Assembly (NCBI GenBank): GCA_043814055.1
Contig: JBDRKL010000001.1
Span: 1-13,642 of the forward strand
DNA length: 13,642 bases
Reading direction: 5' to 3'
Source: an archaeon
Lineage (GTDB): Archaea; Undinarchaeota; Undinarchaeia; Undinarchaeales; JBDRKL01
Shown here: piece by piece, positions 236 to 10,339 of the stretch
How positions within the stretch are numbered: the first letter of the stretch is position 1
Layout: every line of letters starts with the position of its first letter
The notes under the pieces: model-generated
The model's database searches: none
The model's input: only the letters and a program-made list of their open reading frames with translations
Told to the model about the DNA's origin: nothing
Position numbers and translations under genes: made by a program

Positions 236-1771
236 ATGTCGGAACAGGAAGACCGCGAACTAAGAATAAAGCTCGTTGATGAGCTTAGGAAGTCCGGAGT
301 GGAGCCTTTCGCATACAAGTACGAGCGGACGCACACGACGGCGGAGCTCAGTGAAAAATACGCGAAGCTCAAGCCAGAAGAGAAGAAAGAAAAGGACAAA
401 GTGAAAGTTGCGGGCAGGTTGCGCTCTTTGCGCGGCCACGGAAAAGTCGTGTTTGCGGATTTGGAAGACCAGTCTGGGCGAATCCAATTATTTGTTGCAG
501 CTGACGCGCTCAAGGATTTTGAAACCTTCAAGACCAAGCTGAACATCGGGGACATAATCGGCGCAGAAGGATACCCGCTCAAGACCCGGCGCGGCGAGCT
601 CTCAATCTTCGTGAAGAAATTTGATCTCCTCACAAAAGCCCTAAGGCCGCTCCCTTCAGAGTGGTACGGCTTGAAAGACACTCAAACGCGCTACCGCCGA
701 AGATACCTTGATTTAATCATGAACCCGAGCACGCGCGACGTGTTCAAGAAGCGCAGTGAAATAATAAACGCGCTCCGCGAGTATTTTGTCAAGGACGGCT
801 ATGTTGAAGTCACAACCCCGACGCTCCAGCCAGTCTACGGCGGAGCTAATGCTCGTCCCTTCATAACCCACCACAACACTCTGGACATGGATATGTACCT
901 CAGAATTTCGGACGAAATGTACCTGAAACGATTAATCGTTGGCGGTTTTGAGAAAGTATTTGAGTTCTGCATGGACTTCAGGAACGAGGGCATTGACACC
1001 AAGCACAATCCTGAGTTCTGCCTCTTTGAAGCCCAGACCGCATACACAGACTACGAGGACTGCATGAAGCTCATTGAAACTTCAATTGAATACGCAGCTA
1101 AGAAAGCAGTTGGAAAAACAAAAGTAAAGTACGGCGAGCACACGCTTGAGTTCAAAGCACCCTGGGCAAAGATGACAGTTACAGAATCAGTGAAGAAACA
1201 CGTGGGCATTGACCCTGAGAAATCATCACTTGAGGAACTTGAGCAGTTCTGCAGGGACAATAAGCTTGAAGTTGTTGGAAAGGTCAGCAAGGGCGAACTG
1301 ATGGCAGCGATATTTGAGGAAATGGTTGAGTCAAAACTCATCCAGCCAACGCACATCTACGATTACCCGCGAGAGGTTTCCCCGCTCGCGAAAACCTCGC
1401 GCAAAAATCCGGATTACACCGAGCGGTTTGAGTCCTACGTGATGGGCATGGAGCTCACGAATAATTACTCTGAAATCAATGACCCAATTGACTTGAAACA
1501 GAGGCTTGAAACCGAGATGGGCCGCGGCAAGGACGGCGATGAGGAAGCGCATCCGATGGACCAGGACTTCATAGACGCGATGGAGTACGGATTCCCGCCG
1601 ACCGGTGGAATCGGCATTGGAATAGACCGCCTCGTGATGCTGCTTACTGACTCGCACTCAATCCGTGATGTCATACTGTTCCCAATACTCCGCGAGGAAG
1701 GCAAAGCAACAAAAGGCGATGAGCTCTTCGGGGATGAAGTGAAGGACACTGTGCTCAAGCACAAGAAATAA
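236..1771 (+). CDS. lysS: Lysine--tRNA ligase, class II (LysRS2)
   Basis: N-terminal OB-fold anticodon domain (VAGRL..LRGHGK..FADL.D.SGRIQL), RYRRRYLDL, YGGANARPF.THHN, motif 2 FRNEGID..HNPEF, motif 3 GGIGIGIDRLVMLLT, IRDVILFP. Confidence 0.97.
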   Translation: MSEQEDRELRIKLVDELRKSGVEPFAYKYERTHTTAELSEKYAKLKPEEKKEKDKVKVAGRLRSLRGHGKVVFADLEDQSGRIQLFVAADALKDFETFKTKLNIGDIIGAEGYPLKTRRGELSIFVKKFDLLTKALRPLPSEWYGLKDTQTRYRRRYLDLIMNPSTRDVFKKRSEIINALREYFVKDGYVEVTTPTLQPVYGGANARPFITHHNTLDMDMYLRISDEMYLKRLIVGGFEKVFEFCMDFRNEGIDTKHNPEFCLFEAQTAYTDYEDCMKLIETSIEYAAKKAVGKTKVKYGEHTLEFKAPWAKMTVTESVKKHVGIDPEKSSLEELEQFCRDNKLEVVGKVSKGELMAAIFEEMVESKLIQPTHIYDYPREVSPLAKTSRKNPDYTERFESYVMGMELTNNYSEINDPIDLKQRLETEMGRGKDGDEEAHPMDQDFIDAMEYGFPPTGGIGIGIDRLVMLLTDSHSIRDVILFPILREEGKATKGDELFGDEVKDTVLKHKK

Positions 1772-5846: not shown

Positions 5847-6644
5847 ATGGTTCTCTACAATGACGAGCGGCTTGATAGGGGCAGAATACTCTATGAGGAT
5901 GACAAAGTGCAGACCCTGCCAAGCAAGGACCAAAGCATAAGGCTTGGGACAGTTAAATCCCAATCCAATCCTGAAAAATTCTATAATGTGAGCATAGAGA
6001 ACTTCGACCAGCCCAGGGTAAACTGGCAATACTACTGCAATTGTAGGGACTACGCGTTCATGAAAGGCGAGCCGTTCCTCTGCAAGCACCTCTGCGCATT
6101 CATGTATGCAATAGGGGCGTTCCCAATGGGCAAATCTTTCCGGGAAATCGCCGCTATGGTGCCCAAGAAATTCCGCTCCGGCAAAACATTGAGAGTACTG
6201 CCCACAAAGTTCGCTGCATTCTCAAACCAGGCTGTAATTGATGAGGCGTTTAGAAACAAACATGAATACCAGACAGAGCTGATATATCGGCTTGAGGCTG
6301 GCCAAATCAGCAAGCTCAACGAGCTGTACCGTCTCTACGAGCGCCTGGAAGTTATCACGCGGCATGAGATATTCAACAAAATTCTTGGCATTGTGAAAGA
6401 TAAACTAGAGGCTGCGCTTTTAAGAGCTCCACTTAACGATGTTCACAAGCTCTTGAAGAAAAAAGTCATCCCGAGCCGGATACTAAGTGTAGAGGAAGCA
6501 CGGGATTTCATTGCCAGAATATTGGCTAACCGCAGGGACTATGAGGTATTAAAAAAGGAATTTAAAAAGGACAAGGACTTTTCTAAAAAATATTCGGAAC
6601 ATCTTCTAGTATTGAACAACAGGGTCAGGGCGTTTTCAAAGTGA
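5847..6644 (+). CDS. SWIM zinc finger domain protein
   Basis: V.SQS.P...Y.V followed by YYCNCRDY...FLCKHLCA (CxC-n-CxH); helical, basic C-terminal region. TTTTATAG at 5816-5823 upstream. Confidence 0.8.
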   Translation: MVLYNDERLDRGRILYEDDKVQTLPSKDQSIRLGTVKSQSNPEKFYNVSIENFDQPRVNWQYYCNCRDYAFMKGEPFLCKHLCAFMYAIGAFPMGKSFREIAAMVPKKFRSGKTLRVLPTKFAAFSNQAVIDEAFRNKHEYQTELIYRLEAGQISKLNELYRLYERLEVITRHEIFNKILGIVKDKLEAALLRAPLNDVHKLLKKKVIPSRILSVEEARDFIARILANRRDYEVLKKEFKKDKDFSKKYSEHLLVLNNRVRAFSK

Positions 6645-6690
6645 GTGATTTATCTCAGTAGGATGGGGTATATCTTGTCATTTTCTTACA

Positions 6691-6710
6691 AGCTAAACTA
6701 TTTATTTAAG
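6691..6710 (+). promoter_or_regulatory. Putative TATA promoter for the tRNA-like RNA / tRNA-Ser unit
   Basis: AGCTAAACTA-TTTATTTAAG, with the TATA-like part 27-36 nt upstream of G6737. Confidence 0.5.
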
Positions 6711-6736
6711 TTTTAATATGTGTTATTGCTAATTGT

Positions 6737-6913
6737 GCCCAGGTGGCGGAAAGACATCTGTTTCGCAGCTGATTACTTATTTAAACGAGTGAACACAAAT
6801 TATAAGGGGCTCACTTAGCCTGGTAGTCCCGCAGCATCACAAATATTATGCGGGACAATCAACACACACGAAGTGTGTGTGCATCACACGAAACGTGTGA
6901 TGTTCCCTGGGTA
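6737..6913 (+). ncRNA. Putative tRNA-like structured RNA (~177 nt) with an acceptor-like stem and five arms
   Basis: GCCCAGG(6737-43)/CCTGGGT(6906-12)+A; TG linker; GCGGAA(6746-51)/TTTCGC(6761-66); GCTGA(6768-72)/TTAGC(6815-19); hairpins at 6821-6861, 6862-6880 and 6881-6903. First 15 nt match tRNA-Ser at 14 positions. No TTCRA T-loop and no CCA. Confidence 0.6.
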
Positions 6914-6925
6914 ATTTGACGCCGT

Positions 6926-7012
6926 GCCAAGGTGGCGGAACCCGGCAACGCGCTCGCCTTGAGAGCGAGTTCCCTTCGGGGAATCTAGGTTCAAATCCTA
7001 GCCTTGGCGCCA
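6926..7012 (+). tRNA. tRNA-Ser(TGA), intronless, CCA encoded
   Basis: Acceptor GCCAAGG/CCTTGGC + G discriminator + CCA; D arm GCG/CGC; anticodon stem CTCGC/GCGAG with loop CT-TGA-GA (anticodon 6960-6962); long variable arm TTCCC-TTCG-GGGAA; T arm CTAGG-TTCAAAT-CCTAG; followed by a T-tract. Confidence 0.97.
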
Positions 7013-7019
7013 ACCTTTT

Positions 7020-7655
7020 TTATTTCTTCCCAATATAAACCCTATACCCTGCACTCCGCCCTGTCTCTTCCAGGGTGCTGAATACTTGTAGCATTTCCTC
7101 CTTATACATCTTTCCGCCCTTGTTGTGCCGCCCCACAATCTGCAGGCTCCCGCCTTCTTTCAAGTGCTCAGGAGCCTTCTTGATAATTTCAACCACAACG
7201 CTTTTTCCAGCAGAGTAGGGCGGATTTGAAACAATCACGTCAAACTTCTTGATGTGTTCTTTTCCCGCTTCATCAATCCACTTGAGCGGTGAATACAAAT
7301 CCCCGTGCATAACCTCTGCATTCTTGAGATTGTGGAGCCTCAGGTTCTTCCGGGTCAATTGCACTGCCCGCTTGCTCTTGTCAATCATCGTGACCTTGAG
7401 CTCCGGATTATTCCGCGCGGCAACAATTCCAATCACACCATACCCGCACCCCAAGTCAAGCAGGTCCTTTGCCGCGTCTGGAATTTCCATGTTCTCCGCG
7501 AGCGTTAGTGTGCCCTTGTCAACTTTTCTCCAGGAAAAAACCGGCGGCGAGGTTTGGAACTCAAGCTCGTCCCCCCTAATAATTGCCTCAATGGTGTGAA
7601 TCTCCATCGGGATTTCTGTTTCTGTTTTGAAATAGTGTTCTTTTGGTTCTGGCAT
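7020..7655 (-). CDS. Class I SAM-dependent methyltransferase, RsmC/MJ0882-like small domain
   Basis: HYF, VFS...VDKGT, LDLGCGYG (motif I), IVSNPPY (motif IV), GY.VY. Start moved to ATG 7655 (SD GGTGA upstream). Confidence 0.9.
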   Translation of the reverse strand: MPEPKEHYFKTETEIPMEIHTIEAIIRGDELEFQTSPPVFSWRKVDKGTLTLAENMEIPDAAKDLLDLGCGYGVIGIVAARNNPELKVTMIDKSKRAVQLTRKNLRLHNLKNAEVMHGDLYSPLKWIDEAGKEHIKKFDVIVSNPPYSAGKSVVVEIIKKAPEHLKEGGSLQIVGRHNKGGKMYKEEMLQVFSTLEETGRSAGYRVYIGKK

Positions 7656-7720
7656 CAAAATCACCGCTCGATTTTGATAAACACGCATTTCAAATTTAAT
7701 AGTGTGTGTTGTGTGCCTAT

Positions 7721-8420: not shown

Positions 8421-9323
8421 TTATTTTTTATAAGCAGCCAAGTGCCAGAACGTTTCATATTCTTTTGCTCTCAGTTGCCACTCATCTTTTGGGAATACCT
8501 TAATCACGTCTTTAATATCTCGGCAGTACTGTCTCTTTAACTTAAAATTGTCATCCCATCGCATATGAATTTTTGTTTCATCCTCTCCTTTGTACTTTGG
8601 AGTGTATTTTTCCAGAATTTCATAAGTCCCATCCTCCAGGCCTTTTTCAAAATAGTCTTTCCTGTAATCCAATATGAAGAATGACTCAGTTAATGGCAGG
8701 TATGTCTGTATCAGGTCTTTCCAATCATTCTCAAAACATCGCATAAGCTTAAGCATAAAAGCACATCCAATTTTTTCCTGGTTAAAGAAATTCCTGTCAT
8801 AAAAACGCCTAACATTCTGATAAGCGCCAACATATTCCTCTCCTGGATTCGTTCCATACAGGTATTGCTTTATTTTTCCACAAACATAGTAAATAGGCGG
8901 GTTGAACTCGCGGCTGCAATACATCTCATTACTGTCCCAATTTATGTTCTCTGCCAGTATTTTCTTCCCATACCCCTTGTTTATTTCTTTTGTGCGTTTA
9001 TTTGGGTGATTGACCTTTTTTGCATATTTCTCTTTAGGTACACCTAAGGGGTTCTGTCCAAGGCAAAGCACATTGCTACTTGAAAATTGTTTTCTTAAAT
9101 TATACAGGAACGCACCCTGCCAGAATCCAACTTCAAGTGCATTTGGATACTTCAACTGGGTCATTATCTTGCTTACTTCGTCTATTTTGGGAAATTGTTC
9201 CACCAGAACCTCGTGTATCTTCAAATTCAGCTCGGATCCTCCCAGCTCAAGAATCATCAAGTCATTTAGGGAGAGCAGGTCGTCCTCATCTCCAAGATTA
9301 AAATGTTTTTTGTTTGCATTCAT
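8421..9323 (-). CDS. AT-rich hypothetical protein, possible divergent class I SAM-methyltransferase fold
   Basis: NALEVGFWQGAF resembles motif I, FFILDY a late beta strand; ATGA overlap with the cbf5 stop. Confidence 0.6.
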   Translation of the reverse strand: MNANKKHFNLGDEDDLLSLNDLMILELGGSELNLKIHEVLVEQFPKIDEVSKIMTQLKYPNALEVGFWQGAFLYNLRKQFSSSNVLCLGQNPLGVPKEKYAKKVNHPNKRTKEINKGYGKKILAENINWDSNEMYCSREFNPPIYYVCGKIKQYLYGTNPGEEYVGAYQNVRRFYDRNFFNQEKIGCAFMLKLMRCFENDWKDLIQTYLPLTESFFILDYRKDYFEKGLEDGTYEILEKYTPKYKGEDETKIHMRWDDNFKLKRQYCRDIKDVIKVFPKDEWQLRAKEYETFWHLAAYKK

Positions 9324-9332
9324 TTTTTATAA
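8421..9332. repeat. Imperfect 13-bp direct repeat (12/13) at the 3' ends of cbf5 and of the downstream ORF
   Basis: TTATTTTTTATAA (8421-8433) vs TCATTTTTTATAA (9320-9332); both encode Y-K-K-stop on the minus strand. Confidence 0.45.
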
Positions 9333-10303
9333 CTAGGATAAACCCCTTCGTCCATAAAAACTCGTTCTGTCTTAATCGCAAGCCCTTTCTTTGTCTTCTC
9401 CATTGCCTCTGAGCTCATCAGCGCTTTGCCCATCACAACTGCTTCGCCTTTCTGCGTGAAGCACGCAACGAGTTCGCCTTTCTCAATTCCTGAGTCCATT
9501 TTCAGCAATCCAGGCAGGGCGAGCTGGGCTCCGTGGCACAGCGCGTCAACCGCGTAGTCGCTCACGATGATTTTTGGCAAATGCGTAAGTGCTTTTTCCA
9601 TCGGATGCACTATTTTCCTCAACTCCTTTTCATCTCCATTCTCTTTCCAATCAACATAAGCATCAGTCAGGCTTTGCAGAGACACAATAGAGCTTTCGTC
9701 AAACGCCGCGGTCTTTGTTCTCCTTAACTGTTGCATATGCGCGCCAACTCCGAGCGCAGCGCCCAGGTCATAGCACAGCCTGCGGATATAAGTCCCTGCT
9801 TCGCACCCTGTTTTGAACAGCACGTCCTTGCCATCAATCTCAATAATCTTGTTATAATAAATCTCTCTTGCCCTGAGGATTCGCTTGACTGCAGCCTTCT
9901 CTGGCGGGCGCTGGTAAATCTTGCCTGTGAACTCGCCCAGCATTACTCTCAAAGCCGCCTCATCAACTGGCTCGTGCAGGTGCATCAGGCAGACATATTC
10001 CTTGCCTGCGTGGAGCAGGGCCTGTAGCGCCTTTGTCGCGTTGCCCAAGCCAACAACCAGAATGCCTGTAACATTCGGGTCTAAGGTTCCGGCATGCCCG
10101 GTTTTGCTGGATTTTAAAATGCGCTTCACCCACTCGCACACCTCGTGCGAGGTCGGGCCTGCTGGCTTGTCAATGTTAACAACTCCGTTATTGAGCAACT
10201 GCTCTACGCTTCTCCTTGTTGGAAGTGTTCCGTGTTTCGCGCTGGTCTCTTCCTCGTGCCTGACAAGAAGCTCCCGGTCGCGCTCAAATGGTAATTTGTC
10301 CAT
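9320..10303 (-). CDS. cbf5: H/ACA RNA-guided pseudouridine synthase Cbf5 (TruB family)
   Basis: NIDKPAGPTSHEV, GHAGTLDPNVTG (catalytic Asp), KEYVCLM, IYQRPP, CEAGTYIR, LRRTK, C-terminal PUA domain (AVDALCHGAQL..PG). ATG at 10303. Confidence 0.96.
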   Translation of the reverse strand: MDKLPFERDRELLVRHEEETSAKHGTLPTRRSVEQLLNNGVVNIDKPAGPTSHEVCEWVKRILKSSKTGHAGTLDPNVTGILVVGLGNATKALQALLHAGKEYVCLMHLHEPVDEAALRVMLGEFTGKIYQRPPEKAAVKRILRAREIYYNKIIEIDGKDVLFKTGCEAGTYIRRLCYDLGAALGVGAHMQQLRRTKTAAFDESSIVSLQSLTDAYVDWKENGDEKELRKIVHPMEKALTHLPKIIVSDYAVDALCHGAQLALPGLLKMDSGIEKGELVACFTQKGEAVVMGKALMSSEAMEKTKKGLAIKTERVFMDEGVYPSYKK

Positions 10304-10339
10304 TAGCAAAATCAGAATCTCTATTATACTGCTACCTTA

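Follow-up and report, generated by a model that had tools for sequence, protein, structure and literature searches.

A tRNA-like object 5' of an archaeal tRNA-Ser(TGA) gene is most likely a hairpin-rich repeat element inserted at the gene's end

Introduction

Several kinds of repeat and mobile DNA are known from the neighborhood of tRNA genes or share the build of short hairpin repeats. The retrotransposon Ty3, the Dictyostelium tRNA gene-targeted retroelements (TREs) and short interspersed nuclear elements (SINEs) prefer the immediate flanks of tRNA genes and leave target duplications of variable length; archaea have a single RNA polymerase, unlike the hosts of these eukaryotic elements. The target duplications of MITEs (miniature inverted-repeat transposable elements) usually measure 2-10 bp. 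Repetitive extragenic palindromic sequences (REPs) and bacterial interspersed mosaic elements (BIMEs) occur in dozens of copies, have an imperfect palindrome with a short single-stranded head of conserved sequence immediately on its 5' side, and combine hairpins as modules. REPs are bacterial, leave no target duplication and accompany a Y1 transposase gene (REP-associated tyrosine transposase, RAYT), and to our knowledge no REPs that prefer tRNA ends are on record. The D loop is a known site of non-canonical introns in archaeal tRNA genes. The casposase of Aciduliprofundum boonei inserts at the 3' end of a tRNA-Pro gene and duplicates about 15 bp overlapping the gene end, occasionally 16 and 22 bp (PMC5137440). 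Here we describe a 177-nt object (positions 6737-6913) that lies upstream of an intact tRNA-Ser(TGA) gene in a 13,642-nt stretch of archaeal DNA, called the window below.

The window makes up contig C1 in the 0.98-Mb assembly of a DPANN-type archaeon (G000). The assembly has 14 contigs and is 82% complete, and the archaeon is the sole member of its family and genus among the genomes compared. A first-pass annotation interpreted the object as a five-armed tRNA mimic or decoy. Three of those arms, and the 3' strand that closes the structure, belong as modules to a repeat family, here called R1, that is present in 26-33 copies in the genome. Its main stem covaries, some of its copies lie between direct repeats of their targets, its members prefer the ends of stable-RNA genes in both orientations, and the insert is absent from relatives. 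The stretch 6735-6913 is most likely a composite, and its cloverleaf look a by-product of insertion rather than the mark of a tRNA mimic. Coordinates outside the window are given as contig:positions, preceded by a genome number for the relatives.

Results

A repeat family supplies the interior of the object

BLAST of 6737-6913 against the assembly gave 13 further matches, all to query positions 70-149 and none to positions 1-69, and nhmmer gave 22 matches at E<0.05. Seventeen copies from G000 (alignment A1) are the basis of covariance model R1, which has 33 matches in the assembly at E≤1 and 26 at E≤0.001; the window copy is among the members (Table 1). The aligned 56-nt core comprises a weak small hairpin, a conserved single-stranded head and a 7-bp main stem, which a 3-nt bulge separates from an inner stem of 5 bp. 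In A1, 97.5% of the main-stem cells are paired, compared with 23-42% in slid controls, and six of the seven pairs of this stem change on both sides. None of 500 shuffles reaches its covariation score, a count that is not a probability because the 17 copies are paralogs of one genome.

In 21 of 28 core matches, a hairpin of 6 bp with a loop of 6 nt lies downstream of the core, in short copies mostly 3 nt past it. In this terminal hairpin, four of the six stem positions show three Watson-Crick pair types and two loop positions are nearly fixed; the diversity is the informative part, because the hairpins were selected for pairing. The family unit of about 80 nt is the core plus the terminal hairpin, and long copies insert one to three extra hairpins between the two. 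The window holds a long copy. Its core consists of a small hairpin (6807-6811 with 6817-6821), the conserved single-stranded head and a main stem of 8 bp (6826-6833 with 6849-6856), and is followed by two extra hairpins and the terminal module. Accessory hairpin 1 is a variable module, with near-identical hairpins in long copies at C9:28294-28319 and C12:102390-102413. The terminal module shows 2 mismatches in a local alignment of 19 nt to the terminal hairpin at C12:35131-35150, and is identical at 22 of 23 positions (96%) to G010:C10:5614-5636, a stretch directly 5' of a tRNA-Met gene in a relative. The module's own hairpin is weak in the window, where four of six pairs are possible by eye and pair probabilities are 0-0.03. 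The module's 5' strand (6906-6912) serves as the 3' strand in the helix that closes the object.

Rfam searches of the window at the gathering threshold and at E≤10, of 17 other R1 copies at E≤1 and of the G010 elements described below at E≤5 revealed no known family for the object; apart from chance-level matches, Rfam gave only tRNAs, SRP (signal recognition particle) RNA, 23S rRNA and RNase P RNA. Readings of the main stem as a K-turn, a bulge-helix-bulge, a box C/D or an H/ACA motif were rejected by eye, the defining non-canonical pairs or boxes being absent. Two copies, C4:80950-81046 and C12:9075-9181, have an extra A/T-looped hairpin at the main-stem bulge, flanked by a 6-nt stem repeat; it may be a nested insertion or an arm shared by a subfamily.

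Direct repeats of the target flank the insert

Five copies in G000 lie between 14-25-nt direct repeats of their target, and four of the five repeats are tRNA gene ends (Table 1). Targeting is not specific to tRNA genes, because the repeat on contig C4 is the 3' end of an open reading frame (ORF). As judged by eye, repeat-flanked copies agree at their 3' end and vary at their 5' end. In the window, the agreement of 16 of 17 nt between the left and right repeats, pointed out in the first-pass annotation, was borne out by reading and by shuffling: tRNA positions 1-17 match the left copy at 14 of 17 positions, which none of 300 shuffles equaled. The segment between the left repeat and the family core (6752-6804) supplies the 3' strand of a D-like hairpin (6761-6766), forms an A/T-rich hairpin of its own (6773-6778 with 6787-6792) and includes TATA-like stretches.

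No insert is present upstream of tRNA-Ser(TGA) in five relatives (G006, G002, G010, G032 and G004), which have plain A/T-rich, promoter-like sequence there, with A/T-rich boxes at a distance from tRNA +1 comparable to that of the TATA-like box in the window. These empty sites are weaker evidence than within-species ones, because the five relatives belong to other families. The first-pass annotation had itself named a MITE-like insert as what a lack of conservation in relatives would point to, and this is essentially the outcome. R1 has no match in 15 of 16 other genomes of the phylum. The one match outside G000 is marginal (E 4.7e-4) and lies in G003, where a hairpin insert (G003:C3:46671-46714; L043/L097) sits between 41-nt direct repeats of an ORF 3' end.

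Searched with a degenerate 26-letter pattern for the 5' part of the family, metagenome and viral collections, which may omit records of this genome, yielded 31 and 3 loci, respectively; none is a true member, because all score ≤18 bits with R1. In one DNA run the match was limited to the tRNA-Ser part, on a 193-nt contig of another organism, and is uninformative on the insert. Full-text literature searches on DPANN and archaeal tRNA-linked repeats, MITEs and introns gave no description of such elements. Both the family and its preference for tRNA ends as targets thus seem to be undescribed.

The same arrangement recurs with a second element family

The order of parts seen in the window (a copy of tRNA positions 1-15, an element, the complete tRNA) is found again in another lineage, there with a different element family. 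Among the regions read upstream of 33 G010 tRNAs, four carry a three-hairpin element of about 95 nt with a mean column identity of 87%. Each element follows a 14-16-nt copy of the first 15 positions of its own downstream tRNA (three perfect, one with a 2-nt gap), and a promoter-like box lies at the usual distance upstream of each copy. A covariance model of this family, R2, was run across 13 genomes of the order and found five copies in G010, one in G002, one in G006 and none in the other ten, G000 included. R2 is confined to one genus, a different one from that of G000 within the same order. The fifth G010 copy (G010:C5:36337-36429) abuts the 3' end of a tRNA-Lys gene and has a 16-nt repeat; the G002 copy (G002:C1:93349-93441) lies downstream of a 9-nt tRNA-Pro pseudo 5' end; and the G006 copy (G006:C5:57081-57161) has no tRNA nearby. 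Homology between R1 and R2 is not established: R1 finds nothing in G010 and R2 nothing in G000, and all that the two have in common is the arrangement, the 23-nt terminal module and, by eye, a single short type of hairpin.

Copies lie at the ends of stable-RNA genes

Sixteen of 32 R1 copies are within 200 nt of a tRNA gene predicted by ARAGORN, compared with 2.3% of 20,000 random sites. A same-strand core match lies 20-74 nt upstream of 7 of the 40 predicted tRNA genes. Three more leaders, those of Thr-cgt, Ser-gct and Pro-cgg, carry a variant main stem, as found by reading the 90 nt upstream of all 40 tRNAs and by pattern matching of the upstream regions. The terminal hairpin ends 0-3 nt before +1 of seven tRNAs other than tRNA-Ser(TGA) (Thr-ggt, Thr-tgt, Asn, Leu-tag, Cys, Ser-gct and Thr-cgt), and probably does so just before Pro-cgg as well, and in the window the terminal module too stops 1 nt short of tRNA-Ser +1; these positions come from reading, because the automated hairpin search often picked other folds. 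Of the other copies, some start 13-26 nt past the 3' end of a tRNA and some approach such an end from the opposite strand, and both orientations relative to the neighboring tRNA occur. Beyond the tRNAs, a minus-strand copy (C9:51399-51454) lies about 40 nt from the SRP RNA gene (C9:51493-51764, plus strand), and another minus-strand copy (C12:9075-9181) lies directly 3' of the 23S rRNA end at about C12:9253.

The object folds as a closed multi-hairpin RNA

The minimum free energy (MFE) of 6737-6913 is -70.7 kcal/mol, compared with -44.5 +/- 3.8 kcal/mol in 200 shuffles (z -6.89), so that the z-score check put forward in the first-pass annotation finds a fold far more stable than the shuffles. 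The D-like hairpin described there (6746-6751 with 6761-6766, 6 bp) and its three further hairpins all appear in the MFE fold, as does the 7-bp acceptor-like closing helix, with pair probabilities of 0.93-1.0, or 0.95-0.98 when the putative whole precursor 6731-7012 is folded. The upstream TATA-like box and the start of tRNA-Ser 12 nt past 6913 were likewise read in the sequence. The 5-bp anticodon-like stem (6768-6772 with 6815-6819) did not hold up: its strands are complementary as written, yet they pair with a probability of about 0.001, and a fold forced to contain the stem loses 4.4 kcal/mol. Because folding does not support this stem, the object folds as a closed multi-hairpin RNA and not as a cloverleaf. 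The tRNA-like spacing reported earlier is therefore genuine in that the first 15 nt are tRNA-derived, and fails beyond them.

That the object is no canonical tRNA was correctly recognized. It has no T arm, no T-loop sequence was seen in 6737-6913 by eye, and both ARAGORN and the Rfam tRNA model are silent on this stretch; ARAGORN in intron mode, run on the whole genome, also found no tRNA in it. The predicted lack of a known RNA family agrees with an Rfam search of 6600-7050 at E≤10, which gave tRNA-Ser itself and chance-level matches.

The closing helix deserves separate description. A 7-bp partner for 6737-6743 arises in 2.4% of shuffles of 6884-6925 and in 5.2% of shuffles of 6752-6925, a comparison judged post hoc. 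The single substitution of the left repeat, at 6740, pairs with 6909. Both differences from the presumed sources improve the helix, the one at 6740 from the true tRNA and the one at 6908 from the G010 terminal module. Other repeat-flanked copies, inspected by eye in G010, have no equivalent helix.

Discussion

Proposed origin of the object

The 177-nt object is probably a chimera, in which a hairpin-rich repeat element has been inserted in the tRNA-Ser(TGA) gene with duplication of the target. A family member would have landed between tRNA positions 15 and 16 and duplicated 17 bp (-2 to +15), leaving one copy beside the old promoter (6735-6751) and the other in the intact gene (from 6924). The duplicated 5' end would then be the source of the "acceptor 5' strand" and of half of the "D arm", and the modules of the element would be the source of the three hairpins and of the strand that closes the helix. 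Such an event could proceed through staggered cuts 14-25 bp apart, one at or near the boundary of the tRNA gene and the second after position 15, or 16-19 nt before the tRNA 3' end; fill-in would leave an intact tRNA gene.

The TATA-like box is probably the original promoter of tRNA-Ser. Transcription from it, or from an A/T-rich box inside the insert, would yield a structured 5' leader of pre-tRNA-Ser of 120-190 nt, which RNase P would remove at 6925/6926; an RNase P RNA gene is present in G000 (141 bits). Because the old promoter faces the pseudo 5' end and the nearest A/T box of the true tRNA is at least about 120 nt away, the element is expected to be transcribed as a long leader. The object is almost certainly part of the same primary transcript as tRNA-Ser, with RNase P cutting it off. 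The insert is most likely a mobile element, non-autonomous and directed at the ends of tRNA genes, that has become part of a long pre-tRNA leader.

Several observations weigh against insertion by a mobile element. Recognizable flanking repeats are present in only 5 of about 32 copies, and a pseudo 5' end is absent upstream of nine other leader-type copies, where the best agreement is 10-11 of 17, within the shuffle range. Leader copies without repeats could be old, or could have spread otherwise, for example by duplication of a leader together with its tRNA. The repeat lengths, 14-25 nt (41 nt in G003), fit no known transposase well, and terminal inverted repeats were not seen at the copy ends, by eye only. 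The closing helix is the sole feature that an insertion does not predict; it is stronger than chance and hints at selection on the composite. It may nevertheless be due to chance, or be a secondary adaptation that sequesters the duplicated 5' strand from competing for the 3' acceptor strand of the tRNA. Finally, a search limited to the families RVT_1, Phage_integrase, DDE_Tnp_1 (IS4-type), TnpB (by its zinc ribbon), Y1_Tnp and Cas1 gave no match in G000. Mobility is read from footprints only, because no mobilizing enzyme was found in the 82%-complete assembly. The enzyme may be located in unassembled DNA, in a virus or in the host of this probable symbiont.

Other explanations of the locus

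The failure to find an enzyme also fits a different account, in which the family is a structured flank of stable-RNA genes that is useful to the host as a processing aid, end protection or transcription punctuation, and the duplicated ends are by-products of cassette copying. The core matches upstream of tRNA genes on the same strand, together with the three further leaders found by reading, are what such a role would produce, as are the terminal hairpins that end exactly at tRNA +1 in many leaders, the copies beside SRP RNA and 23S rRNA, the compensatory changes that keep the stems, and a terminal module that is nearly identical in two families and directly 5' of a tRNA in both. A processing or punctuation signal sits badly, however, with copies in both orientations, upstream and downstream of tRNAs, inside an ORF end and in tandem. 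Sense and antisense strands moreover fold about equally well (sense better in 18 of 28 copies, antisense in 10), which is not decisive between action at the RNA and at the DNA level. A useful flank would also be expected to be neither missing from nearly all other genomes of the phylum, in the case of R1, nor confined to one genus, in that of R2, and 30 of the 40 G000 tRNAs are without a family copy. We consider this account unlikely, though it deserves to be kept in mind. A tandem pair of copies was noted at C4:112885-113082, with a 120-nt period, a 90-nt shared segment and the same promoter-like box before each copy.

The proposal of a functional tRNA-like RNA at 6737-6913, which would descend from tRNA-Ser, be freed by tRNA-processing enzymes and act as a mimic, decoy or regulator, draws on the very stable fold and on a closing helix that forms in every context folded, exceeds its chance expectation and takes in the lone substitution of the repeat. 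The 10-bp hairpin 6881-6903 could also stack on that helix as a T arm does on an acceptor stem. This proposal has to accommodate an object with no T loop, no 7-nt anticodon loop, no tRNA match by ARAGORN or Rfam and a virtually unpaired "anticodon" stem, three of whose arms, with the closing 3' strand, are ordinary modules of a multicopy family, whose closing helix has no equivalent in the other repeat-flanked copies inspected, and which has no counterpart upstream of tRNA-Ser(TGA) in the five relatives. It appears very unlikely. Still more improbable is a decayed tandem duplicate of the whole tRNA-Ser gene that gained hairpins. The nearly identical 5' end is what such a duplicate would retain, and by eye the closing 3' strand has five of the seven letters of the true 3' acceptor strand. 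Yet the likeness to tRNA-Ser ends at position 15, a boundary that recurs at other tRNAs and in G010; 6896-6925 scores 15 when aligned to the family terminal hairpin, far above the 6 obtained with the 3' end of tRNA-Ser; and the interior is the family core, at 67 bits.

Comparison with described elements

Insertion of a mobile element remains our preferred explanation, and on that footing the elements can be set beside those described. The likeness to MITEs is in their small size, non-coding nature, multiple copies, mostly intergenic location, target duplications and patchy presence among relatives. They differ from MITEs in having strand-asymmetric modular hairpins, no terminal inverted repeats (by eye), no partner transposase that could be found, and target duplications far longer than is usual there. 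With the REP/RAYT systems the elements have in common the single-stranded head beside an imperfect palindrome, the dozens of copies and the modular use of hairpins; they differ in their target duplications and tRNA-end preference, and in that no Y1 transposase was found in G000. With tRNA-targeting retroelements and SINEs the elements share the preference for tRNA gene flanks, the variable length of the target duplications, and the constant 3' and variable 5' end of the repeat-flanked copies; they differ in that no reverse transcriptase was found in the assembly, no A-rich tail is present, and the insertion is inside the tRNA gene end, that of the retroelements upstream.

G000 is rich in intron-bearing tRNA genes, which invites comparison with archaeal intron-containing, split or permuted tRNAs, and the insert occupies a D-loop position. 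An intron-containing or split tRNA was rejected, since the downstream gene is complete without splicing, no bulge-helix-bulge could be drawn at the junctions by eye, and pairing of the upstream exon-like copy to the 3' acceptor strand would leave a mismatch at position 4.

The elements resemble casposons in duplicating 14-25 bp, the duplications of tRNA ends measuring 14-20 nt and consisting of the first 15 or the last 16-19 nt of the gene. Casposons differ in being large and in having terminal inverted repeats, Cas1 and a polymerase; the present elements are 80-190 nt long and non-coding, with no inverted termini by eye. Cas1 is absent from the element-bearing genomes G000, G010, G002 and G006, and among the 13 genomes of the order it was found only in G009.

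It is conceivable, though we would advance it tentatively, that the elements form a new class of archaeal non-autonomous mobile element, inserting at both ends of tRNA genes (past position 15, or at the 3' end) and beside other stable-RNA genes, with a casposon-like duplication and without inverted termini or Cas1. If so, elements between a promoter and a tRNA would take advantage of strong tRNA promoters and have their 3' end trimmed precisely by RNase P. Such a class would fit RNA-mediated copying, or an as yet undescribed integrase supplied by a host or a virus, and the separate families in two lineages of one DPANN order would mean an old mechanism that is still active. A reduced genome of about 1 Mb with some 30 structured elements that prefer exact tRNA ends and duplicate the first 15 or last 16-19 nt could point to an integration mechanism that reads tRNA gene ends. 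About a quarter of the organism's tRNAs are probably made from precursors with structured leaders of 80-190 nt, which matters for tRNA annotation, for the biology of RNase P in DPANN archaea, and for automated scans that report "tRNA-like" objects beside tRNA genes. A false lead is also removed, since the cloverleaf-like object is most likely not a new tRNA mimic.

The locus and its surroundings

The features of the window locus and the related loci are collected in Table 1. The class II synthetase of the aspartyl/asparaginyl type encoded in the window has its nearest relative, at 49% identity, in a metagenome-assembled genome of Candidatus Aenigmatarchaeota. The Cbf5-type pseudouridine synthase has DKCLD and PUA domains and is an archaeal marker. 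Pfam matches are absent or weak for four of eight scanned window ORFs.

Table 1. Coordinates of the window locus, of flanking direct repeats and of related loci. Positions without a contig name are in the window.
Feature	Position	Strand	Basis or remark
TATA-like box	6701-6709	+	read in sequence; 28-36 nt upstream of duplicated tRNA 5' end
Left direct repeat	6735-6751	+	copy of tRNA-Ser positions -2 to +15, one substitution at 6740
5' strand of 7-bp closing (acceptor-like) helix	6737-6743	+	MFE; partner 6906-6912
Segment between left repeat and family core	6752-6804	+	no match elsewhere in G000 (BLAST)
Repeat family 56-nt core	6805-6860	+	covariance model R1, 67.1 bits, E 3.3e-15
Accessory hairpin 1	6862-6880	+	MFE; 8 bp (6862-6869 with 6873-6880), 3-nt loop
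Accessory hairpin 2	6881-6903	+	MFE; 10 bp (6881-6890 with 6894-6903), 3-nt loop
Family terminal module	6903-6925	+	alignment to family and G010; directly abuts tRNA-Ser +1
Right direct repeat	6924-6940	+	2 leader nt and tRNA-Ser positions 1-15, within intact gene
Intact tRNA-Ser(TGA) gene, encoded CCA	6926-7012	+	ARAGORN; Rfam RF00005, 56.6 bits
Direct repeat pair, window	6735-6751 / 6924-6940		17 nt, 1 mismatch; tRNA-Ser -2 to +15
Direct repeat pair	C10:78524-78537 / 78678-78691		tRNA-Ala 5' end; element on opposite strand
Direct repeat pair	C12:18801-18825 / 18920-18944		tRNA 5' end and upstream sequence
Direct repeat pair	C10:28918-28937 / 29027-29046		last ~19 nt of tRNA-Ser(cga), including CCA
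Direct repeat pair	C4:80930-80946 / 81073-81089		ORF 3' end
R2 loci of G010	L098, L108, L113, L121		tRNA 1-15 copy, element, complete tRNA
Class II Asp/Asn/Lys-type tRNA synthetase gene	236-1771	+	neighbor
Small-domain methyltransferase gene	7020-7688	-	neighbor; converges on tRNA-Ser 3' end
Cbf5-type pseudouridine synthase gene	9320-10309	-	neighbor

Some features of the tRNA genes of G000 were noted in passing. Of the 40 genes predicted by ARAGORN, 18 have introns, the long ones being those of Trp (193 nt), Met (109 nt), Gly (106 nt) and Tyr (99 nt). Three predictions are doubtful: "Pyl(cta)", "His(atg)" and a "Ser(cga)" with its anticodon at position 74. An apparent tRNA 3' end with CCA is present at C12:102300-102390, where no gene is predicted. 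On the 3' side of many tRNA genes lies an A/T-rich palindromic hairpin of stereotyped form, with runs of T on both strands (for example C10:83441-83485, C10:138481-138525 and C8:32633-32677), which resembles a bidirectional terminator, and a short motif 3' of these hairpins resembles the 5' end of the repeat family.

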